From positions 416,001-480,000 of the forward strand of contig CAWCNY010000006.1 in NCBI GenBank assembly GCA_963797095.1: 64,000 nucleotides of DNA, given 5' to 3'. The position numbers were made by a program, and so were the translations under genes. Below are positions 5,700 through 59,420 of the stretch, piece after piece (the first letter of the stretch is position 1; each line of letters begins with the position of its first letter). Under the pieces are notes generated by a model. It was not told the origin of the DNA. It did no database searches and saw nothing but the letters and a program-made list of their open reading frames with translations. This DNA comes from an uncultured Chloroflexia bacterium (lineage in GTDB: Bacteria > Chloroflexota > Chloroflexia > QHBQ01 > JADMIH01).

Positions 5700-6430
5700 A
5701 GCGGCTCGACGAAGTTGTTCTACTGTTCAAGCCCGACACCGTGCTCCGCTGGCACCGCGACCCGGTCAGGCGCAAGTGGACCTTTCCACGGGACAGACGG
5801 ACTGGTAGACCGCATGTCGCTGGGGAGTTGGAACAGCTAATTGTACGGCTAGCCCGCGAGAACCCGAGGTGGGGCTATAGCAAGGTCCAGGAGGAACTTC
5901 TCAAGCTTGGCGAATCGGTCAGCCGCTCCACCGTAAGAAACATGCTCAAACGCCGTCACATCCCTTCCGCTCCCGAGCGCAAGAAGCGAGGAAGCAGTTG
6001 GCGCATCTTCCTTGGCCATTATGCTAACCAAAGCCAACGCGTTCGCGCAACGCTGGGTGCGGACCGTCAGAGAGGAGTGCCTGGACCACCTGCTCGTAAT
6101 CAGTCAGGGTCACTTACGAAGAGTGCCGGCCGAATATGTCGAGCATTACAACCGCGGAAGGCCCCACCAGGGCATTGGCCAGCGTATTCCAGTACCCCCA
6201 GTACCCCCAGTACCCCCAGTACCCCCAGTACCCCCACTGCCTCTGCCTCCACTGCCTCCACTGCCTTCAGTGCCAGTTTCAGAGAGGAGGGCAGCCAAGC
6301 CAGGGGTCAGAAGTGCGGTTGGCATTGGCGTCCAAGATGTGCTTGGAGGCATTATCCCCGACTACTATCGAGTCGCTAGCCACGCTGCATAGACCCCTTT
6401 CTGCGCACGGACGAGTTATTACACATTACA
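5700..6430 (+). pseudogene. Internally deleted IS-type integrase-core (DDE) transposase remnant
   Basis: LRWHRD..RRKWTF..GRP..RLARENPRWGY is joined out of frame to KANAFAQRWVRTVREECLDH..HYNRGRPHQG..LGGII. The middle of the catalytic core is missing. Confidence 0.8.
6189..6267. repeat. (CCAGTACCC)x5 followed by CCACTGCCT repeats inside the IS remnant
   Basis: Read directly. Confidence 0.9.
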
Positions 6431-6436
6431 GGAGAT

Positions 6437-7030
6437 GTGTTGAATGCGACCACGCTTGCTATCTACAACACCTTACCTACTCTCAGCCCCAATCCGCGGT
6501 CGGAGCCTACACAAGATAGAGAGTGGCGACAAAGCTGGTTATGGAGAGTAGCGGCCCAAACTGCAATAGTCTTATATCCTCCTCCCACTCCTATAACATT
6601 TCCAGACGTCTTCACACCTACTCCACATCCTCCGTGGCCCACTGAAATCGTGCATGAACGGACAACCTCCGAGGGCGTGATTTATGACGAGAGATTTGTC
6701 GGGCCTCCATGTAACGAAGTCTATGCAACCAATCACTGGTACGGGCAAGCCGTGGGCGCGCGTACCCACGTGTGCGCCGGTGAAGACAAAATGTACCAGA
6801 GCAGAGGTGCAATTGTGGTTGAAGTTTGGCATTCCGGTGACCAAGAACCGGCCTACGGCGGTTACTACTTCACACCCAGTGACGAAGGTGCGATACGTAT
6901 CCAGGATGTGCTAGGGAACGAAGTGATCCTTGTCTCGACAAACAACACACTCTTTCACTTTGATCTGGCAACTCGTCAGTGGTCATCTGCCCCTCCGGGC
7001 CCATCCCCATCCATGTCCCCATCGCCATAG
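6437..7030 (+). CDS. Hypothetical protein (possibly the C-terminal remnant of a secreted protein)
   Basis: 197-aa ORF with Pro/Thr-rich linker, then a globular Cys-containing part; GGAG RBS. Confidence 0.5.
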   Translation: MLNATTLAIYNTLPTLSPNPRSEPTQDREWRQSWLWRVAAQTAIVLYPPPTPITFPDVFTPTPHPPWPTEIVHERTTSEGVIYDERFVGPPCNEVYATNHWYGQAVGARTHVCAGEDKMYQSRGAIVVEVWHSGDQEPAYGGYYFTPSDEGAIRIQDVLGNEVILVSTNNTLFHFDLATRQWSSAPPGPSPSMSPSP

Positions 7031-48870: not shown

Positions 48871-51800
48871 CTACTGTTTTGTACTTAAGGTGAGAGCATA
48901 AGCCACCGCGTCGTCAAGCGTCATCATACGTCCCGCATCCCACGCCGCTACCCAGCTATCCTCGTCAAATAGCGCCTTTGCGAGACTCATAGCATCGTCG
49001 TGCTTTGGGCGGTCAATAGGAGGCATAGGGGCGGCAATTGCTTCGCGTAGTGCGTGGGCGGCCCCATAAAGATGAGCGGCGCGAGCAGGTTGCATTTGCG
49101 CGGCGGTCGTTGCTGCCAGACCTTCGAGTGGGGCTGCCATGCCTTCTTTATCGCCCATTTCATGCCTCAACTTCAGACTTTGAGCGTAATAATCCGCTGC
49201 ACGTTCTAGCTCCCCGTCTGTAAAAGCTACTCTCCCGAGAATAACGAGGGTGTGCGCTATCCCACCTTTGTCCTTTAGAGACTGGCGGAGGGCTAAACTC
49301 TCCTCAAGCAGGAGAGATGCCCGTCGAATATCACCCTGCTCGAGAATAGCTAGCCCCAGGTTCGTGAGTGATGCCCCTATGGTCAAACTATCACCTATCT
49401 CGCGCGAAAGTGCCAGGCTTTCCTGAGCTAGAGCAATGGCATGGGCAGTATTGCCGGTGCACAACGTAGCAATGCTCAAGCTGTTCAATGACAGCGACAT
49501 GCCGCGTGTATGGCCTAATTCACTGAAAATGAGGCGCGACTCCTCTAACATGGTAATCGATCGTTCGTAGTCGCCCAGGTAAGTAGCGCCGATGCCGAGC
49601 GCGGTCAGTGAGTTGGCGATCTGCACCTTGTTGCCCAGGTTGCGTGCCACACCCAACGATTGTGCGATAAATTGGTTGGCGCGAGTGTAATCCGCCTGGT
49701 GTATCGCCAGCACACCTGCCGCGAAAAGGGCTTTGGTGCGCACGGCCCGGTAGGAGTCAGATATGCCTTGCTTCTGATTAGGGACGCGAGCGAGAGCTTC
49801 TTCCAGCCAGTGGCGGCCCTCTGTCAGGAAGGCATGAGCGAGCCAGTAGCGCCACAGCGCACCACTCAACTGGAGCGCCAGATCCAGGTCATTCTCAAGC
49901 GCCCATACCAGCGCAGTCCGAAAGTTGTACTGCTCCTCATCAAACCGTTCGAGCCAGTAACGCTGCTGCTCGGTAAACCACACTTCTTCACCTGCCGTAG
50001 CGATCGAGAGGAAGTAGCGGGCGTGCCGCGCCTGGATCTCCTGCAGATCGCCGCTTTCGGCCAGTCGTTCGGAGGCGTATTCGCGGATCATTTCAAGCAT
50101 GGTAAAGCGCGGCTCACCCGCTGTATCGAGCCGCTGGATCAGGCTCTTGTCAAGAAGCATGGCGAGGTCATCCAGTGTGTTTGGGCTCTCGCAAACTATA
50201 GCAGCAGCATCTTCGGTCCACCCTCCCGCGAATACAGCGAGGCGGGCGAATAGCGTTTGCTCCTGGGGTGTGAGGAGGTCGTAGCTCCAGCCAATCGCAT
50301 CGTAGAGGGTCTGCTGCCGAGTGGGCAGATCGCGAGCGCCTCCCACCAGCAGGCGCAGTCGCCTGTCAAGCCGGGAGAGCATAGCCTGTGGAGTAAGGAG
50401 GCGTATACGAGCTGCGGCAAGCTCTATGGCAAGTGGTATGCCCTCCAAGCGCGTGCATATCTGGGCAACAGCTATGGCGTTGTTGGGGGCAAACTCAAAC
50501 CCAGGCTGGATTGCCTTCGCCCTGGCGGTGAAGAGGGCGATAGAGGCACAGCCGGTGAGATATTCCACAGCGGGCTCGCGCGACACATCAGGCACAGCCA
50601 GGGGCGATACCGGGAAGTCATGCTCGATGGTGAGGCGGAGCAGTTCGCGGCTGGTCACCAGGATCTTGAGACCCGGTGCACTCGACAGAAGCTGAGCAAG
50701 GAGAGGTCCAGCGGTGACGACCTGTTCGAAGTTGTCGAGCACCAGAAGCAAACGTTTGTCGTGCAGATAGGCTTTGAGCGTGTCGAGGTGCGAGCGGTCG
50801 CCTGCCTGCTTGAGATCGAGAGCTTGCATGACAGCGGCCAATACCAGACCTGAATCGCGGACAGGCGCCAGCGGCACAAAGAAAACACCGTTGGGGAAAC
50901 GCACTATGCCTGAGATGTGAAGCGGTTCTCGGGGCCAGGCCAGGGCTGAGGCAACTTCAAGCGCCAGCTTTGTCTTGCCGATACCGGCGGGACCTGTGAA
51001 CGTGACTAGCCTCACGTCGGATTTCTCTATAAGGTGAAGTACTTCTTCCAATTCGCGCTCGCGTCCGATGATAGGGGAGAGCGATTCGGGGAGGTTTGTG
51101 CGTCTGGTGGCTTGTTCGGTGAGCAGCGGTTCTGCCTGCTCGAGCTGCGGAGCTGCGATCTCCCCCTTGAGAATGCGATTATACAGGCCGATAGTTTCCG
51201 GTTCGGGCTCGACGCCCAGTTCTGTGCGGATGAGCCTGGCACATTTCTCGTACTGGCGGAGGGCATTGGTGCGCCTTCCGGCGAGAGAATAGGCCAGCAT
51301 CAATTCGCGATGGGCTTTTTCGTCGATGGGGTCGTGGGCTATCAAGCGCTGAAGAGTTGCGATGCCCTTTTCATAATCTGCTTTGTTTGTGTAGACCGAG
51401 GCTGTCCGGTAGAAGGCTTCGGAGGCGGCGCGGCGGAGTGCCTCGCGCCGTGATATGGCCCACTCTTCATAGGCATCTTCAGGTAGGAGGTCGCCCCTAT
51501 ACAGGTCGAGGGCTTCTTCCAGTAGAGGAACAGGATCGGAAGCCTGCCGGGCCTGATTCAAAAGGTGGTCAAAGGCGTCTATGTCTAGCCAGGCATCTAC
51601 CAGCTTGAGAACCTCGGCATTGAGCGTGATGTAATGGGAGTCGGCGGGCCGTTGAAGGTCGGGTTCGATGATCTGGCGGAGGAAGGATAGATTGCGGTAG
51701 AGGTTGTCGCGGGCCGAGGTGAGATCGAGGTTGGGCCAGAGCAGGTCCATAGCCTGCTCTTTGTGAAGCTGGTGGTTGGGGTAAAGGGCTAGTATCTTAA

Positions 51801-51897
51801 GGAGCGCCTTCGTTTTGCGGCGCGTCCATGCAGTGGCAGGTATGGGGGTACCATCGCGCTCAAGGCGGAATTCACCCAGAAGATAGATGGCAAGCAT
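48871..51897 (-). CDS. SARP/AfsR-like regulator: wHTH-BTAD-NB-ARC ATPase-TPR
   Basis: LLGEF, YRGDLL, E.AHRELM, GPAGIGKT, LVLDNFE, LEGIPLAIELAA, TPRs. Confidence 0.9.
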   Translation of the reverse strand: MLAIYLLGEFRLERDGTPIPATAWTRRKTKALLKILALYPNHQLHKEQAMDLLWPNLDLTSARDNLYRNLSFLRQIIEPDLQRPADSHYITLNAEVLKLVDAWLDIDAFDHLLNQARQASDPVPLLEEALDLYRGDLLPEDAYEEWAISRREALRRAASEAFYRTASVYTNKADYEKGIATLQRLIAHDPIDEKAHRELMLAYSLAGRRTNALRQYEKCARLIRTELGVEPEPETIGLYNRILKGEIAAPQLEQAEPLLTEQATRRTNLPESLSPIIGRERELEEVLHLIEKSDVRLVTFTGPAGIGKTKLALEVASALAWPREPLHISGIVRFPNGVFFVPLAPVRDSGLVLAAVMQALDLKQAGDRSHLDTLKAYLHDKRLLLVLDNFEQVVTAGPLLAQLLSSAPGLKILVTSRELLRLTIEHDFPVSPLAVPDVSREPAVEYLTGCASIALFTARAKAIQPGFEFAPNNAIAVAQICTRLEGIPLAIELAAARIRLLTPQAMLSRLDRRLRLLVGGARDLPTRQQTLYDAIGWSYDLLTPQEQTLFARLAVFAGGWTEDAAAIVCESPNTLDDLAMLLDKSLIQRLDTAGEPRFTMLEMIREYASERLAESGDLQEIQARHARYFLSIATAGEEVWFTEQQRYWLERFDEEQYNFRTALVWALENDLDLALQLSGALWRYWLAHAFLTEGRHWLEEALARVPNQKQGISDSYRAVRTKALFAAGVLAIHQADYTRANQFIAQSLGVARNLGNKVQIANSLTALGIGATYLGDYERSITMLEESRLIFSELGHTRGMSLSLNSLSIATLCTGNTAHAIALAQESLALSREIGDSLTIGASLTNLGLAILEQGDIRRASLLLEESLALRQSLKDKGGIAHTLVILGRVAFTDGELERAADYYAQSLKLRHEMGDKEGMAAPLEGLAATTAAQMQPARAAHLYGAAHALREAIAAPMPPIDRPKHDDAMSLAKALFDEDSWVAAWDAGRMMTLDDAVAYALTLSTKQ

Positions 51898-51998
51898 AGC
51901 AAGAGCCTCCGGCGGGTAGCCTACCCTCACGCCCATTATAGTCCTCGCTGAGTTTTATGCAAGCACTCCTTTCCATAATTGCTTGACTTCGAGGCTAT

Positions 51999-52053: not shown

Positions 52054-52127
52054 AAGGCCATAAGTTGAGCGCGGCGGGTAGCGCCGATAGCAAGAAAGCA
52101 ATCATTACCGAAAAGGAGATTACGACG

Positions 52128-52412
52128 ATGATTTATCTGTTGGTCCGGCATAACGTCGAGGACTATGCCAAGTGGAGGCCGGTGTACGATGGGCACGAGG
52201 CTTTCCGCAAGCAGATCGGCTCGAAAGGCGCTCGCGTGCTGCGCGATGCTAATGATCCGACGAACGTGGTGGTGATCACCGAGTGGGCAAACGAGCAGGA
52301 TGCACAGAATTTCGCGGAGTCACCCAATCTGCATGAAACGATGGGCCGCGCCGGTGTGGTTGGTAAGCCGGACATCTACTACCTGGAGGAGATCGACCGC
52401 CAACCGGCCTAA
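52128..52412 (+). CDS. Small dimeric alpha-beta barrel protein (ABM/cyclase-like)
   Basis: HNVEDYAKWRPVYD..M.RAGV; AAGGAG RBS. Confidence 0.8.
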   Translation: MIYLLVRHNVEDYAKWRPVYDGHEAFRKQIGSKGARVLRDANDPTNVVVITEWANEQDAQNFAESPNLHETMGRAGVVGKPDIYYLEEIDRQPA

Positions 52413-52664
52413 TCGGTCTGATACGAGTGAAGTAGAGAGTAGGGTGCACAGGATCTCTTGGTCTTGTGCACCTTTTGCTATTTGCGTGCAGTGAGGATTC
52501 TTATGCGCCTCGTATACTGAGTGGCACTGATGGTACGAAACGGGACAGGTTTTGGAATGTACTTTGGTACAGTTTCTTCTGGTGGATTGCGTATGGAGGA
52601 TGGGTAGAAAGGGGTATAATGGAAGTCCAGCTACCGGCTGATTGCTTGTATGCGAGAGTGATCT

Positions 52665-55600
52665 ATGACTACCTTCTGTCCCAATTGCCGACAATGGAGC
52701 GCTTTGCCCGCCGACCTGGGGGTGATGCAAGGCAACACCCTTGTAATGCCGAAGTGCGAACACTGCGGGGTCGTCCTGCCTGTGGAAGGACGCTACGGGT
52801 TGTGCGCTGAGTGCGGGCGATATCACAGGACAGATTATGAGATTTGCCCATTCAAGGTCGATGGACTTGATACTGGTGCCTCTGCGACCGAGTCACCCGG
52901 ACCTTACAGCATCGAAGCTCAGAAGCGACGGCCCAAGAAGCGCAGCGACGAGTATTACTGGCAATTGTACTTTGATTATCGGGACAAGCAGGATGAGGAT
53001 AGCACAGGGCCTCAGGTACCGAGCGCCGGGCCTGCCGAGGAGAGCAGCACAGAAGAGGAACCGCCCCACCCGGCTGATATGGCCGGCTATGTGCCCGCTG
53101 GCAGTAACGGCAATGGATATGGGCGTACCCCCTACGGTAATGGGGCAAACGGCGGATTGTATGGGCATGGCACGAACGGCAACGGCAACGGTAAGGGTAA
53201 CGGGTATGCTAATGGCAATGGTAAGAAGAACGGCCATGGCGCTGCCACCAGGGTTGACCTGGCAGTGGCGGAAAGTGTGTCACTGACCCTCTTTCCTGAG
53301 ATTGAGGCCGTCGAGTCTGTAGAAGAAGCAGCGCCTACGCATGTTAGCTCTGCTGGAAACTACAACGAGTTCGAATATGAATTGATTAGCGACCCGTCGA
53401 GGCTGGCCGAGGTGGCGGAGCTACTGGCTTCGGAGAAAGTAGTGGGCCTGGATACGGAAACTACCGGGTTGGACCCCTACACAGCCGCGCTATTGCTGTT
53501 GCAGGTGAGCACCACCGATAGGGTCTATATAGTTGACTGCAAGCGCGTGGTGCCCCTGGCTTTGAAGCCGCTGCTGGAAAATCCCGATGTCATGAAGGTT
53601 GCGCAGAACGCCAAGTTCGAATACGTGATGCTGCGGCAGCAGGCAGGGATCACTGTCAATAACCTGTTCGACACAATGCTCGCCGAGCGGCTCTTGACGG
53701 CTGGGATCGGGCGCGAGATTTCATTGAAGGCCATCGCACACAAGTATATCGGGGCAACGCTTGACAAGAGCGTGCGCGAGAGCTTCTATAAGCTGGCGAT
53801 GCACGGTGATGCCTACCTGGCCCCTGAGCAATTGCATTACGCGGCGCGGGACGCATACATCATGATCCCGGTGTGGCGGCAGATACTGCCCGATTTGAAG
53901 AAGCAAAGGCTGGTGCAGGTGGCAGAGCTTGAGTTCAGGTGCATACCTGCGGTGGGCGACCTGGAGCTTGCGGGCGTGCAGATCGACGTGGATCGCTGGC
54001 GCAAGATCATCGCGGATGTAGCTGTGCAGCGTGAGAAATCGGCTGAGGAGTTGAGCGAATTGCTGGCGCCCGCAACCATGCAGGCCACTATGTTCGGGGT
54101 GCCTTCGATAAACCTGAACTCGAACGTGCAATTGCTCGATGCATTCGCAACCCTTGGTGTGAATCTGCCCGACACAATGGAGGCAACGCTGGTGAAGTTC
54201 GACCACCCGGCGGTTGCCAAATTGCTGGAATATAGATCGCACGAGAAGACGCTATCGGCTTTCGGGGAGAACGTGCTTGGCCTGATAAACTCACGGACGG
54301 GAAGAATACACCCCGACTTCAACCAGTACGGGGCCGATACCGGACGCTTCTCCTGTACCAAGCCCAACGTGCAGCAAATCCCTGCAACTTCCGATTTCCG
54401 TAAATGTTTCGTAGCCGCGCCAGGCTATAAGCTGGTCACCTGCGTAGCGGCCGGCACGCGCATAGCCACCACGCGAGGACTTCTTCCCATTGAAGATGTC
54501 GAAGTAGGCGACCGCGTGCTGCAGGAAGACGGGTCAGCAAGATGCGCCAATCGCGTCATCAATCAAGGCATAAGACCCACAGTGAAGATCAAGACCTCCC
54601 TAGGATATGAAATCGAGGCGACCCCCGAGCACCGGGTAAGGGTCATAGATGGCGATGGCTGCTACGTTTGGCGAGAGGTCCAGCATCTGGCTGAAACCGA
54701 TCGTATAGCTATCAAGCTGGCTACACCTTTCTGCGAGAACGCTGTACCGCCTGCTCTGGAATATGCCGAGTCGGAGCATTGCAACTCTGTGAACAGGAAG
54801 CTACCCGAGAGTGTCACACCTGAATTGGCGACGCTGTTCGGCTATATCACTGGTGACGGCACGCTATGCGAGGACTACGTCGGATCGGTCGTTAACGCTC
54901 AGGACGAAGATCTGGCCGAACACCTGGCTCAATCGGCCGATAGACTTTTCGCTATTCAGGGAAGGACCTACACTTACAGAGGAGTAATAGAGCACCGTCT
55001 CCATAGTAAGCAACTACTTAAGTGGCTGAGAAAAGCCGGGGTAGCCAAAGACAGGGTGCCTTCTATCCTGTGGACTTCAAGCACGAACCTTATCGCTGCC
55101 TATCTACGGGGTCTCTTTGAAGCTGACGGATCTGTTCAGAATACAAACACCGGACGCATCAGTTTCTCGACCATTCACGAGCAACTCGCCCGGGAGGTGC
55201 AGCAACTTCTCGCAGCTTTAGGTATTGCATCGGCCAGGAAGAAGGTTGAACATGGCAAAGGAATTGGCTACATTTGGGTCATTACCATCCCTTCTAATTG
55301 GAAAAGCAGATTTCGGCGAGAGGTAGGCTTCCTATCTCAACGCAAGAGGAATGCTCTGGATGCTCTGATACTCACCTATAAGGTAAATCAGCACACGGGT
55401 GGGATGCCAATTTTGAGGGCCAGGGCGCGAGCGCTCGCCGGCAAGGAGTCTGGAGAGGTCAACTTGCTGCTGGCGAATACTCGCTTCCGTGGGAGCGTGG
55501 TCTCCGAGGATCTATCCAGGCAGATCAGGGAGGTGTCTGCCACAGCATATGCTCAGCTGGAACTCTACAGAGTAGTAGAATATTCCGTTATCTTCGATAT

Positions 55601-57458
55601 GGTCAAGTCGGTGGCACCAGGTGAAACGCAGTTGGTGTATGATCTGACTGTAGAAGGCACATCCACATATGTGAGCCATGGCTTCGTCAGCCACAATTGC
55701 GATTACTCGCAGGCCGAGCTTCGTATACTCGCAGAGCTGAGTGGAGATGAGGCTTTCGTGAGCGCGTTCAAATCGGGGCAAGACCTTCACACCCTCACAG
55801 CGTCGCAGATGTTCGGCGTGCCTGTTGACCAGGTGCAGAAACCGCAACGGTCGGCTGCTAAGGCGATCAACTTCGGTTTGGCTTATGGCATGGGGCCAGG
55901 CGGCCTCGCTCCCCGCCTGGGTGTGAGCCTCGACGAATCGAAGAGCCTGATCTCCAAGTATTTCGCGGCTTATCCGGGCATACAACGGTGGCTGGACAAA
56001 GCGGCCAAGGACGCAGTCAGGTTGGGGTACAGTGTCACACCATTGGGCAGGAAGCGCTTCTACAATATGCCCGACGAAAGCCTGAAGCGGCAAAACGAGG
56101 ATGAATGGCGCAGACAGATAGGGGCGATTGAGCGTCAGGGCAAAAATTCACCAATTCAAGGTTGTGTTGTAGGGAGCACCCGCATATTTGAGGAAACGCA
56201 CGGGTATGTGCCCATCGAGAGCTTGCGTGGACAGGTGGTATCGGTTTGGGATGGTACAACTTTCTCGCAGGCCGTGGTGGTGTACAGCGGCAAGAAGCAG
56301 CTAGTGCGCATACATCTGTGGGATGGCAACTATATTGAGTGCAGCCCCGACCATCGCTTCCTTGTGCGGCCTACAACCGGCAGCGATATGTGGAAGACAC
56401 CTGCGGAGTTCAAGGCACAGAATAAACTCATACTTGGTGAGGCGGTGCCACCCTGGTCGCTGGTGCCGACAATGCCTGTACGCAGGCATAGCCCGGTGTG
56501 GAATGCCAAAAACGTGAGCTTGAGTCAGATTACCGATCCTGCGGCGTTAGGCGAATGGCTTGGGCGGCTGGCCTCGGATGGCTCGCTGCATAATGGAGCG
56601 GCATGCCTGCTGGTGGCCGAGCACGAGGAAGAAGTACTATTGCCACGACTGCGTGAGATCAGCCCTCAACTTGGGTATGTAGGATACAGCGTGCGCTCTA
56701 CCCTGGAGAAGCCAAAGCGTTTCCATAGGTTGAACATCTCATCGCGAGCCATAGTCCATGAGCTTAGAGAACTGGGCATCAAGGAGCGCGTGCCTGATTG
56801 CGCGTGGCAGAATGGTGCTTTGCTTGCGGGTTATTTGCGCGGGATGTTCGACGGTGACGGCACCGTAAACAGAGATGATGCCTTTCTGGTCTTTGGTCGT
56901 GGGGCTAAACATCTGCGTTGGGCGCGCGAGATTCAGCAGGCGCTGCTCTTGTTTGGAATAAGGAGCCGAGTGAACGTATGCGCAGACCGGATCAATGTGC
57001 GCGTAGTTAAGAAGGATGTGCCGATTTTCTGCGAACAGATCGGATTCATGAACCCGCAAAAGCAGGCGAAAGCTGAGTCAGTATCGGCCCGAGTGACTGA
57101 CATAAACTATGGACGTGGAGTGCGCGTGAAGTCGGTCGAGTTCACCGACAAGTGGGTCGATATGTACGATGTTGTCAACAGCCAAACCGCACGGTTTATG
57201 GCGAACGGCTTGATAGTGCACAATTGCAACGCAGATATGACTAAGTTGGCGCTTATCAATTTGCGCGCTGCTTTGCGCCGTTGGGACGCCCGTACCGTGA
57301 ACACGGTGCATGACGAGATCGTGGTTGAAGCGCGGGAAGATCAGGCCGAGGAAGTGAAGCATATCGTTGAAGGGGCGATGATTGGCGCAGGGCAAGCCAT
57401 ATTGAAAGAGGTACCCATCCTGGCCGACGCTTCGATTGCAGATTACTGGAGCAAGTAA
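52665..57458 (+). CDS. Family A DNA polymerase (Zn-ribbon, 3'-5' exonuclease, polymerase) with two inteins
   Basis: DTETTG, YAARD, TGRFSC..PNVQQIP, DYSQAELR, RSAAKAINFGLAYG, NSPIQG, VHDE; no 5'-3' exonuclease. Confidence 0.93.
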   Translation: MTTFCPNCRQWSALPADLGVMQGNTLVMPKCEHCGVVLPVEGRYGLCAECGRYHRTDYEICPFKVDGLDTGASATESPGPYSIEAQKRRPKKRSDEYYWQLYFDYRDKQDEDSTGPQVPSAGPAEESSTEEEPPHPADMAGYVPAGSNGNGYGRTPYGNGANGGLYGHGTNGNGNGKGNGYANGNGKKNGHGAATRVDLAVAESVSLTLFPEIEAVESVEEAAPTHVSSAGNYNEFEYELISDPSRLAEVAELLASEKVVGLDTETTGLDPYTAALLLLQVSTTDRVYIVDCKRVVPLALKPLLENPDVMKVAQNAKFEYVMLRQQAGITVNNLFDTMLAERLLTAGIGREISLKAIAHKYIGATLDKSVRESFYKLAMHGDAYLAPEQLHYAARDAYIMIPVWRQILPDLKKQRLVQVAELEFRCIPAVGDLELAGVQIDVDRWRKIIADVAVQREKSAEELSELLAPATMQATMFGVPSINLNSNVQLLDAFATLGVNLPDTMEATLVKFDHPAVAKLLEYRSHEKTLSAFGENVLGLINSRTGRIHPDFNQYGADTGRFSCTKPNVQQIPATSDFRKCFVAAPGYKLVTCVAAGTRIATTRGLLPIEDVEVGDRVLQEDGSARCANRVINQGIRPTVKIKTSLGYEIEATPEHRVRVIDGDGCYVWREVQHLAETDRIAIKLATPFCENAVPPALEYAESEHCNSVNRKLPESVTPELATLFGYITGDGTLCEDYVGSVVNAQDEDLAEHLAQSADRLFAIQGRTYTYRGVIEHRLHSKQLLKWLRKAGVAKDRVPSILWTSSTNLIAAYLRGLFEADGSVQNTNTGRISFSTIHEQLAREVQQLLAALGIASARKKVEHGKGIGYIWVITIPSNWKSRFRREVGFLSQRKRNALDALILTYKVNQHTGGMPILRARARALAGKESGEVNLLLANTRFRGSVVSEDLSRQIREVSATAYAQLELYRVVEYSVIFDMVKSVAPGETQLVYDLTVEGTSTYVSHGFVSHNCDYSQAELRILAELSGDEAFVSAFKSGQDLHTLTASQMFGVPVDQVQKPQRSAAKAINFGLAYGMGPGGLAPRLGVSLDESKSLISKYFAAYPGIQRWLDKAAKDAVRLGYSVTPLGRKRFYNMPDESLKRQNEDEWRRQIGAIERQGKNSPIQGCVVGSTRIFEETHGYVPIESLRGQVVSVWDGTTFSQAVVVYSGKKQLVRIHLWDGNYIECSPDHRFLVRPTTGSDMWKTPAEFKAQNKLILGEAVPPWSLVPTMPVRRHSPVWNAKNVSLSQITDPAALGEWLGRLASDGSLHNGAACLLVAEHEEEVLLPRLREISPQLGYVGYSVRSTLEKPKRFHRLNISSRAIVHELRELGIKERVPDCAWQNGALLAGYLRGMFDGDGTVNRDDAFLVFGRGAKHLRWAREIQQALLLFGIRSRVNVCADRINVRVVKKDVPIFCEQIGFMNPQKQAKAESVSARVTDINYGRGVRVKSVEFTDKWVDMYDVVNSQTARFMANGLIVHNCNADMTKLALINLRAALRRWDARTVNTVHDEIVVEAREDQAEEVKHIVEGAMIGAGQAILKEVPILADASIADYWSK
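54441..55697 (+). mobile_element. Intein 1 (419 aa) with LAGLIDADG endonuclease
   Basis: VT|CVAAGT...TPEHRV...LFGYITGDG...YLRGLFEADG...VYDLTV...SHN|CDYSQ. Confidence 0.93.
56163..57224 (+). mobile_element. Intein 2 (354 aa) with LAGLIDADG endonuclease
   Basis: IQG|CVVGST...SPDHRF...WLGRLASDG...YLRGMFDGDG...MYDV...VHN|CNAD. Confidence 0.93.
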
Positions 57459-58007: not shown

Positions 58008-59420
58008 ATGAGGAAGAACATCCTATCATGGTTACGCCTGCTGGCGGTACTCATAATGGCTATGCCTGCGTTTGCAGCACAACCTGCTGTCGCGCAGGGT
58101 AATTGCCGCACCTTTGCCGAGACGGCAAAGACGGTGTGCGACCAGTTCCTTGCTTATTGGAACGCCAACGGTGGGTTGGCGCAACAGGGTTTCCCGATCT
58201 CGGAAGTGCTGTCTGAAACCAGTGATACAGATGGCAAGATATACACCGTGCAGTATTTTGAACGGGCAGTGTTCGAAATGCACCCTGAATTCGCGGGCAC
58301 ACCGAACGAGGTATTGCTGCAACTGCTGGGTGTTTACTTCTGGAACAGGCGCTACTCCAGTGCTGCGCCGAATCAGGTTGCCAACTCAGACCCAGGTGCT
58401 CGTGTGTACCCGGAGACGGGCAAGACCCTTGGCGGCACTTTCCAGCAGTATTGGGATTCGCATGGCGGCTTAAGACAGCAAGGCTACCCGATCTCCGATG
58501 AATTTATCGAGGTCAACGACCTCGACGGTAAGCCTTACAGAGTGCAGTACTTCGAGCGAGCAGTGTTCGAATACCACCCTGAATATGCGGGTACACCGAA
58601 CGAGGTATTGCTGTCGCAGGTAGGCACGTTTGCTGAGCGGATCAGGCACGCCCCAGTTGCTCCACCCACATCTACCCCTGCCCCGGTACAGCCGACAGCC
58701 ACTCCTATACCGGCACAGCCTACGCCTACCACCCCATCGGCTCCTCCGCCTTCGGACCCGTGCGCCGGTATACCGCCAAGCACCGATGCGTCTGTCACGC
58801 CCCCCTGCGGCCCGGCCGGAAGCAGGTTCACATTCAGTGGCAGGGGTTTCCAGCCCGGCGAGAATGTGGGCGTGTATGTTACCACGCCTGACGGCGCTGT
58901 GTATGGCGCTAATTTCCAGGTTGAGGCCGACTCAAATGGGCAGGTGGGCGGTGTCTACATAGATACCCTGCCCGGCGACCCTACAGGCATATGGGCTGTG
59001 ACCTACGAAGGCGTTACCACTCACAAGAAATCTATCGGCTACTTCAAGGTGTACTCTAATACTCCGCCTACTCCTACACCCGTTGCGGGTGGTGGCGGTG
59101 GCGGCACTTGCGATACCTCGGGCAGCGTGAACGGCACGGCTACGCCCAATTCAGGCGGCCCTGGTACAGTCATTGTATTCAGGGCAACCGGCTTCACCCC
59201 AGGCGAAGACGTTTCTTACTGGCTTACTTTGCCCGATGGTAGCGTGGTTGGCACCAGTTCACCCGTACCTGACGGTGTCAACTCCGACGGTTCGGTAGGC
59301 CCACTCTCGCTCACGATCACCTCAGGCCTTGCGAGTTTGGCCTCAGGCCGCTGGGCGATCACCTTCGAGGGTGCGAGCAGCCATCACCAGGCGATTATCT
59401 ACTTCTGCGTGCACCAGTAA
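58008..59420 (+). CDS. Secreted protein with two YFERA repeats, Pro-rich linker and two Ig-like domains
   Basis: Signal peptide; repeats as in 2820..4031; duplicated GF.PGE.V..T.PDG..G.WA.T.EG. Confidence 0.8.
   Translation: MRKNILSWLRLLAVLIMAMPAFAAQPAVAQGNCRTFAETAKTVCDQFLAYWNANGGLAQQGFPISEVLSETSDTDGKIYTVQYFERAVFEMHPEFAGTPNEVLLQLLGVYFWNRRYSSAAPNQVANSDPGARVYPETGKTLGGTFQQYWDSHGGLRQQGYPISDEFIEVNDLDGKPYRVQYFERAVFEYHPEYAGTPNEVLLSQVGTFAERIRHAPVAPPTSTPAPVQPTATPIPAQPTPTTPSAPPPSDPCAGIPPSTDASVTPPCGPAGSRFTFSGRGFQPGENVGVYVTTPDGAVYGANFQVEADSNGQVGGVYIDTLPGDPTGIWAVTYEGVTTHKKSIGYFKVYSNTPPTPTPVAGGGGGGTCDTSGSVNGTATPNSGGPGTVIVFRATGFTPGEDVSYWLTLPDGSVVGTSSPVPDGVNSDGSVGPLSLTITSGLASLASGRWAITFEGASSHHQAIIYFCVHQ

Follow-up and report, generated by a model that had tools for sequence, protein, structure and literature searches.

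A family A DNA polymerase gene of an uncultured Chloroflexia bacterium raises the question of what a cysteine-rich head, joined to the enzyme by a long Gly/Asn-rich tether, contributes to a protein that carries exonuclease and polymerase domains and no 5' nuclease. The gene lies on the plus strand at 52665..57458 (including the stop codon) of the window, a stretch of 64,000 nucleotides (positions 416,001 to 480,000 of the forward strand of contig CAWCNY010000006.1, assembly GCA_963797095.1). It was identified as the gene of a 1597-amino-acid (aa) precursor with two inteins from its open reading frame (ORF) and from matches in Pfam and NCBIfam. The initial annotation had covered 52665-53370, which are the first 235 codons of this ORF, and the N-terminal motifs and the spacer listed there were all present in the sequence where it had placed them. 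Judged by sequence comparison, a second chromosomal family A polymerase has been kept beside Pol I through one Chloroflexia-type order (in nearly all genomes). We consider it on balance somewhat likely that its head is a docking module on a flexible tether, which binds a partner and concentrates the polymerase where DNA needs filling.

The ATG at 52665 was the first start codon past an in-frame stop, with GAGAG a few bases 5' of it, and the homologues started at the same M-x-x-x-C, so the true start does not lie downstream of the Cys-rich part. The head, a double zinc ribbon delimited by Cys conservation and the predicted local distance difference test (pLDDT), comprised aa 1-64 (52665..52856, + strand) with the knuckles C5xxC8, C31xxC34, and C47xxC50 and the residue C61. 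In the window protein these read CPNC at aa 5-8, CEHC at aa 31-34, and CAEC at aa 47-50, followed by H54, which is likely the fourth ligand of the second zinc site, and by C61. The ligand set of four knuckles with eight Cys/His positions would suffice for two zinc sites. In alignments of 12 to 23 sequences, C34, Y44, C47, C50, C61, and P62 were invariant, and C5, C8, and C31 together with Y97, Y98, W99, and L101 further downstream were nearly invariant. The fourth ligand of the second site alternated among the homologues between C64, H54, and a His just downstream, which is the behaviour expected of a real metal site. The heads of the homologues shared 45-68% identity, and since the Cys/His pattern and the aromatic motif were invariant or nearly so at this level, the pattern is more than chance. 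By this conservation the head is real and under selection. Both AlphaFold models placed confident short hairpins at the knuckles, with a pLDDT of 72-91 for residues 1-60 in the second model.

The head was followed by a basic/aromatic segment at aa 81-107 (YSIEAQKRRPKKRSDEYYWQLYFDYRD; 52905..52985, + strand), recognized by its conservation and net charge, which contained DEYYWQLYFDY at aa 95-105. Its core E-Y-Y-x-x-L-x-x-x-Y was also found in relatives without the preceding strand or without the zinc part: Y-Y-x-x-L-x-x-x-Y stood straight after the zinc part in a sister family (L040, L041), with the preceding strand absent, and was present in two relatives having no zinc part (P0040, P0041). 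Such recurrence agrees with a helix, or else with a linear motif for binding. The linker at aa 108-235 (52986..53369, + strand), delimited by composition, alignment, and pLDDT, consisted of an acidic part, the motif EEPPHPAD (aa 131-138; 53055-53078, + strand), a Gly/Asn-rich part, and the motif VDL..ES..LTLF..E (aa 197-214; 53253-53306, + strand). Its 128 residues included 23 Gly, 15 Ala, 13 Glu, and 13 Asn. In a 12-sequence alignment P133, P134, H135, D198, L199, L209, F210, and E214 were invariant or nearly so, and PPHP was found in 9 of 12 sequences. The pLDDT was low from residue 111 onward in the first AlphaFold model, and this linker of about 130 aa is predicted to be disordered.

The fusion of the head to a polymerase, which the initial annotation had left to be confirmed in homologues, was conserved. 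A word-indexed search with residues 1-125 returned 11 proteins, all intein-free and all with exonuclease and polymerase domains; ten were 770-847 aa long and one was a 618-aa partial record. An exhaustive HMMER search of 1.84 billion representatives gave 14 matches, of which 11 were the head (10 N-terminal pieces that stop within the linker or shortly beyond it, and one polymerase of full length) and three were weak multi-stretch matches. The short matches were considered as stand-alone or split heads and rejected, for they end inside the linker or a motif and look like truncated gene pieces. A search for related loci with the single protein found one true relative. With a head profile in whole genomes, the head was detected within the genus in 23 of 25 other species, and within the two sister families in 3 of 5 and 8 of 9 species, counts that include the unpublished genomes G408, G420, G494, and G470 (20/22, 3/5, and 7/8 without them). 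Over the order as a whole, 34 of the 39 other genomes carried the fused head, and the genomes missing it were all 62-88% complete. The remaining matches of the head profile in the class were 4 of 41 in one family, at an E-value of about 1e-4. Weak matches elsewhere in the phylum (G137, G008, G268, G362) were unrelated zinc-ribbon proteins. In two relatives the polymerase frame was split: it was broken inside the repetitive Gly/Asn linker in G476 (L033, about 6438-6537) and at several places in G490 (L034). These splits are probably sequencing indels in assemblies of few contigs; a length-variable coding repeat in the linker could also shift the frame in nature.

Beyond the long-head proteins, a search with the exonuclease-thumb region returned 1861 proteins, and the figures that follow are from the best 120 of these (119 new). 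Most of the matches listed were headless enzymes of about 598 aa; headless members made up about 96 of the 119, and those with a source name came from Patescibacteria-type (Candidatus Woykebacteria) or Chloroflexota organisms. Eleven of the 119, with lengths of 670-692 aa, carried a shorter head with four CxxC followed by a short Gly/Asn linker, and these short heads shared M1, C5, C8, C31, C34, Y44, C47, C50, and C61 with the window head. A profile of the zinc part only, run over 400 other sampled genomes of the phylum, gave four matches. One, in G154 of a different Chloroflexota family, was the same polymerase, in which a head, a linker containing NG, and AGALFD precede the exonuclease domain; the other three were unrelated zinc-ribbon proteins. 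A maximum-likelihood tree was built in quick search mode from 59 rows, with 36 of the 96 headless full-length matches (the first 16, then every fourth) and with the organism's own Pol I as a single very long outgroup branch. The long-head proteins formed one clade with a support of 99, which also contained P0028, a 674-aa record without the zinc head that is taken to be truncated at its start. The short-head proteins fell into two clades, whose branching relative to 24 headless proteins was unresolved, and headless Chloroflexota clades sat between the long-head and short-head groups. The tree is compatible both with a head that is old and often lost and with a head gained more than once.

The body behind the tether was a proofreading polymerase of family A. 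The 3'-5' exonuclease domain (aa 238-411; 53376..53897, + strand; PF01612, E-value 1.8e-30) had the motifs DTE, NAKFE, and YAARD. The polymerase domain matched PF00476 with 277.6 bits (cut-off 34.3) in three pieces separated by the inteins. These extein pieces, all on the plus strand and delimited by Pfam and extein motifs, were piece 1 at 53898..54440, ending ...GYKLVT immediately 5' of motif A; piece 2 at 55698..56162, with motif A DYSQAELR and motif B RSAAKAINFGLAYG, ending ...NSPIQG; and piece 3 at 57225..57455, with motif C HDE and the C-terminus. The motifs stood at aa 1013, 1062 (RSAAKAINFGLAYG), and 1549 of the precursor, and DYSQAELR, KAINFGLAYG, and HDE are what we take to be motifs A, B, and C. 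Motif B, KAINFGLAYG, carried the Phe reported in the initial annotation, presumably the equivalent of E. coli F762. No 5'-nuclease family was found among the Pfam matches of the precursor. In NAKFE (aa 315-319, about 53607-53621) the acidic residue was Glu in the window protein and in 11/11 long-head relatives, and among the matches listed it was Asp in 10/11 short-head and 91/96 headless relatives. By these counts the change from Asp to Glu in the second exonuclease motif, a conservative one, is specific to the long-head clade.

Among the NCBIfam models the best was NF011539 (PRK14975.1-3, bifunctional 3'-5' exonuclease/DNA polymerase), with 544 bits with the inteins in place. Its cut-off of 640 bits was not reached by three intein-free relatives either, which scored 590-615 bits over profile positions 27-43 to 627 of 628, as the best of 9 models in each case; 16 headless or short-head relatives scored 502-587 bits. 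The canonical Pol I models TIGR00593 and NF004397 stayed below their cut-offs (285 vs 600 and 345 vs 720 bits), with 328-338 and 391-405 bits for the intein-free relatives. Among PDB sequences the apicoplast Prex polymerase matched best, with 234.8 bits across the exonuclease and polymerase domains, just ahead of Klenow at 231 bits, and the best phage match had 32% identity, no better than Pol I-level similarity. In the tree the organism's own Pol I was set apart from the family by a branch of 7.2. On these scores the body belongs with the known nuclease-less proofreading PolAs of the NF011539 type and is not a new lineage. The second, specialised PolA lineage proposed in the initial annotation held as a second PolA beside Pol I, and its novelty as a lineage did not hold against 544-615 bits to NF011539. 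The head had further been described as standing in place of the 5' nuclease. This had to be given up: that nuclease is missing from the entire family, and the head is thus an extra on some branches and replaces nothing. The separate canonical polA that was expected did exist: it lies on contig 4 with the 5' nuclease and is the sole match to PF02739 in the genome. Across the order the 5'-nuclease domain of canonical polA was found in 39/40 genomes (35/36 without the unpublished ones).

The main text of Czernecki et al. 2023 (PMC10201439) describes twin clusters of nuclease-less proofreading PolAs, #8 and #10, named 'Hot Spring 1 and 2'. 'Hot Spring 1' holds Aquificae and apicoplast enzymes, with N-terminal fusions to a primase-helicase or an AEP primase in cluster #8, and 'Hot Spring 2', which is not a replacement for Pol I, holds enzymes of Acidobacteria, candidate division WWE3, and others. 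Like these clusters and NF011539, the window polymerase combines exonuclease and polymerase without a 5' nuclease and keeps the DxE motif and the motif-B Phe, and like cluster #10 it coexists with a canonical Pol I; we infer a place for its body beside Hot Spring 2. The likeness to clusters #8 and #10 is a comparison by described features, to which the apicoplast top PDB match, scarcely above Klenow in score, lends indirect support. The window polymerase differs from both clusters by its zinc-ribbon head, its long Gly/Asn-rich tether, and its two inteins, none of which is in the main text of PMC10201439, and from NF011539 in that it and its relatives fall under the 640-bit cut-off. The cluster #8 fusions in that text resemble it in placing an extra N-terminal module on the same polymerase body without a 5' nuclease, whereas the module of the window protein is a non-enzymatic zinc domain of about 64 aa on a disordered tether.

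According to the main text of a 2026 survey (PMC12926913), the bacterial PolAs comprise PolA1, PolA2/APEX, PolA3, and a minor PolA1-like group, and the clamp-binding motif of PolA2 is, to its authors' knowledge, the first in family A. PolA2/APEX of Actinobacteria (clusters #4 and #14 of PMC10201439) is, as described in these texts, likewise a second PolA without a 5' nuclease and with a proposed recruitment peptide, the beta-clamp motif. However, the APEX exonuclease is inactivated and APEX is reported there only in Actinobacteria, whereas DTE, NAKFE, and YAARD are intact in the Chloroflexia-type window protein, which is moreover best matched by NF011539 and not by an APEX-like model. In contrast to PolA3, described in the survey's main text as prophage-borne, the window gene had no phage families among its 18 neighbours and a best phage match of 32% identity. 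The main texts of PMC10201439 and PMC12926913 do not mention a zinc module on PolA, Chloroflexi, or inteins, though their supplements may list such sequences, and full-text searching of the literature for a fusion of a zinc ribbon with a polymerase of family A gave nothing relevant. A zinc head on a tethered proofreading PolA seems to be undescribed.

As for the head itself, the likeness was to Pfam DZR (PF12773) and DZR_2 (PF18912), which also have four CxxC knuckles in about 60 N-terminal residues. The window head scored 14.9 bits against a gathering cut-off of 27.3 for the former and 13.4 against 27 for the latter. Weak DZR matches were found in five of eight heads, with a best E-value among the eight of 0.00097, and all head matches were below the cut-off. 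Because no function is established for DZR, this likeness describes the shape of the head and says nothing of a mechanism. Searching PDB with a sequence profile of the head returned chance-level zinc-finger rows only, and Foldseek against PDB gave no match at E <= 0.001 for either head model. VIA-align of both models reached at best Z 2.4 (zinc region of human Pol epsilon) and 2.1 (NZF finger of TAB2), far below a meaningful level, and an ESM Atlas search with the head returned scores at or below 0.88, with nothing above noise.

In the mechanism that we propose, both inteins would be spliced out and the head would then fold around two zinc ions. The tethered head would dock on its partner, which is likelier to be a protein than DNA because the zinc part is neutral to acidic in every homologue, with a net charge of 0 to -8 in 21/21 sequences. 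Further contacts may come from the basic/aromatic segment, with nucleic acid or with the partner, and from the peptides of the tether. Without a 5' nuclease the polymerase can extend and proofread and cannot remove primers or flaps; it would thus fill and proofread DNA and leave primer and flap removal to Pol I. Docking is preferred over DNA binding on account of the charge of the zinc part and the invariant short motifs of the linker.

Several observations weigh against docking. The recruitment module of the initial annotation was not borne out as stated: no partner was found, the survey of conserved neighbours across the order gave none, and no gene was conserved next to the polymerase across the order, so that recruitment is still something we infer. 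Binding of zinc by the head is itself deduced from its ligand pattern. The head is a generic double zinc ribbon without a significant fold or family match, and no match gives it a function. The mean pLDDT of the AlphaFold models was a middling 66 (20 aligned sequences) and 72 (23 aligned sequences), and the models disagreed on the aromatic segment, which was a beta-strand in the first and a helix (residues 96-107) in the second. Most of the listed family members work without a head, which is therefore not needed for catalysis, and the basic/aromatic segment could equally point to nucleic-acid binding.

A more far-reaching form of the docking proposal is that the zinc ribbon, E-Y-Y-x-x-L-x-x-x-Y, PPHP, and LTLF together make up a dedicated multi-site docking arm into a specific machine, for example a repair or replication-restart hub. 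As a way of recruiting bacterial polymerases of family A such an arm would be new; it would go back to the ancestor of part of the Aquificae/apicoplast-like PolAs and have been lost or shortened repeatedly. We put this forward tentatively, as a possibility with the odds against it.

Among the rival explanations, the one that survives best, though we hold it to be unlikely, is that the head is a nucleic-acid-binding module whose zinc ribbons and basic/aromatic segment grip single-stranded or gapped DNA and raise affinity or processivity. Zinc ribbons raise DNA affinity or processivity in some other DNA enzymes. The segment at aa 81-107 would suit such a grip, with its KRRPKKR stretch, its conserved aromatics Y81, Y97, Y98, W99, Y102, and Y105, and its net charge of 0 to +3 (11/11 sequences), but the zinc part itself is neutral to acidic in all 21 sequences, the short-head forms do without the basic segment altogether, and the PDB profile, Foldseek, and VIA-align searches found no similarity to a known DNA-binding zinc domain.

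A tether to the beta sliding clamp, formed by the N-terminal region through LTLF (aa 207-210) or QLYFDY (aa 100-105), seems improbable to us. L209 and F210 were indeed invariant in the 12 sequences, and Chloroflexota relatives that have no head or a different one carried x-S/L-L-F-like peptides (GFSLFE, ALFD, VNLFA) close to or at the N-terminus, immediately ahead of the exonuclease domain; a clamp-binding motif is also reported in the main text of PMC12926913 for PolA2/APEX, another non-Pol I PolA group. Yet the Gln with which the motif usually begins is missing from the peptide, the sister family has ELRDIY or GLHQLY instead of QLYFDY, and nothing links the zinc part to the clamp. A complex prediction for the genome's DnaN with aa 186-245 scored 0.01 (mark 0.32), which has no bearing either way. 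We regard as just as doubtful an intramolecular action, in which the head, instead of recruiting anything, folds back as a lid that regulates or stabilises the exonuclease/polymerase body. The long flexible tether would permit such a fold-back, and the long-head clade has its own Asp-to-Glu change in the second exonuclease motif, but a disordered tether of about 130 aa is long for an intramolecular lid, and in the short-head forms it is much shorter.

The region upstream of the gene bears on a last proposal, SOS control. The polymerase gene was separated from an upstream ABM-family gene (52065-52412; Pfam ABM) by a terminator-like hairpin with a T run (52441..52474, + strand; 15-pair stem with 7 G-C pairs). 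A degenerate copy of a dispersed intergenic repeat of about 75 nt, detected by BLAST against the genome, followed at 52508..52577 (+ strand). Within this copy the weak GTAC-N4-GTAC taken in the initial annotation as a possible sign of SOS control did stand at 52559-52570 (+ strand), as TGTACTTTGGTACA, the only copy in the window. Further downstream, a TATAAT at 52615..52620 (+ strand), 45 nt 5' of the ATG, is likely the -10 element by its sequence and its sharing with relatives, 10 of 12 of which had a TATAAT 20-111 nt 5' of the head start. A consensus scan found no full sigma-70 promoter and no consensus -35 upstream of the gene. BLAST showed at least 53 further genomic copies of the repeat (consensus TTGCCCTCAT...GGACAGGTTTTGGGGTGTACTTTGGTACAGTTTTT), matching along the same ~70 nt (for example G000:C2:107358-107425 and G000:C6:189404-189469) and lying between unrelated ORFs in both orientations, and about 26 of the 33 TGTAC-N4-GTACA sites of the genome had the flank of the repeat. 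Candidates for its nature are a REP-like element, the end of a MITE, or a protein-binding site. Rfam gave nothing near any family threshold in 52380-52700, and the repeat copy folded as RNA had z of +0.94 and -1.49 on the two strands, so no structured RNA is claimed. The lexA promoter of the genome read TTGACA-CGAACCTATGTTC-TATGAT, with the usual GAAC-N4-GTTC box between the -35 TTGACA and the -10, and GAAC-N4-GTTC was not found in the window. The GTAC motif and the repeat core were not found within 400 nt 5' of the head start in 12/12 relatives with a clean start, nor in another set of 12 loci.

A role as a damage-tolerance polymerase under SOS control, with LexA repressing the gene at GTAC-N4-GTAC, is thereby reduced to a very slight chance: a perfect TGTAC-N4-GTACA palindrome does lie 106 nt 5' of the ATG, and L041, a relative of another family, has GAAC-N4-GTAT overlapping its putative promoter, but lexA's own promoter carries a different box, the motif belongs to a repeat spread between unrelated genes and is absent upstream of the relatives, it lies about 45 nt 5' of the -10, outside the core promoter, and the exonuclease motifs are intact, unlike those of typical error-prone polymerases. 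Regulation of the polymerase gene through this motif is largely refuted. Two side observations belong here. In a congener (G412; L029, about 5920-6000), about eight tandem 8-nt units (GGACTTTG / GAACTTTG), absent in the window, lie directly 5' of the polymerase start. In a second ORF, about 600 nt 3' of lexA and in the same orientation, similarity to the LexA profile is confined to the peptidase half, positions 78-199 (G000:C2:270051-271736; L043, L044).

The two inteins lie within the polymerase domain, and their boundaries were set by locating the flanking extein motifs. Intein 1 (aa 593-1011, 419 aa; 54441..55697, + strand), with a LAGLIDADG homing endonuclease and matches to Hint_2, Intein_splicing, LAGLIDADG_3, and Hom_end in Pfam, was inserted directly 5' of C-DYSQAELR (motif A). 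Intein 2 (aa 1167-1520, 354 aa; 56163..57224, + strand), with Intein_splicing and LAGLIDADG_3 each in two stretches, was inserted between PIQG and CNADM. In the precursor Intein_splicing scored 87.7 bits and LAGLIDADG_3 94.8 bits. Both inteins had Cys as the first residue, His-Asn as the last, and Cys as the next residue, with the junctions T|CVAAG...VSHN|CDYSQ and G|CVVGS...IVHN|CNADM, and removal of both leaves an extein of 824 aa, the length given in the initial annotation. Intein-free homologues read LVTCDYSQ and PIQG[CSAG]NADM at the two sites. The Cys 3' of the first site (LVT-C-DYSQ) was kept in 10/10 full-length intein-free head homologues, and that of the second (PIQG-C-NADM) in the closest intein-free homologues; with this Cys kept after each insertion site, the intein-free relatives look like empty homing sites. 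In the genomes of the order the frames of relatives were about 790-840, 1150-1225, or 1380-1630 aa long, so that relatives, congeners included, carry none, one, or two inteins.

None of the 18 neighbouring ORFs matched a phage family in Pfam, in agreement with the absence of phage neighbours noted earlier. Directly downstream, 58008-59420 (+ strand) encodes a protein of 470 aa that begins with a hydrophobic stretch resembling a signal sequence, has internal repeats, and matches nothing in Pfam. The multi-copy family of this secreted protein follows the polymerase gene in 7/9 other loci of the genus and in 0/5 loci of the sister families, and a DUF192 gene is near the polymerase in 3/14 loci; both were considered as operon partners and are read as synteny rather than as partners. 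Upstream and divergent, at 48871-51936 (- strand), lies a 1021-aa BTAD - NACHT/NB-ARC - TPR regulator, which is not beside the polymerase in relatives. Elsewhere in the genome, the match to recA is divided between adjoining open frames, one of 162 aa covering profile positions 1-140 and one of 220 aa covering 140-320 (G000:C6:978910-979873; L045, L046), and this frameshift is either a real break or an indel error of the few-contig assembly.

How non-replicative polymerases reach their substrates is a central question of DNA repair. In the case described here, the polymerase body belongs to a lineage already on record, the head is something added that does not stand in for the 5' nuclease, and the apparent SOS box is a repeat element. 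A long-tethered zinc module that is conserved across an order, and that other branches carry in shorter form, is a tractable new case of this question, for the head is small and separable. If the multi-site docking arm should prove true, it would give the bacterial enzymes of family A a means of recruitment that has so far gone undescribed.

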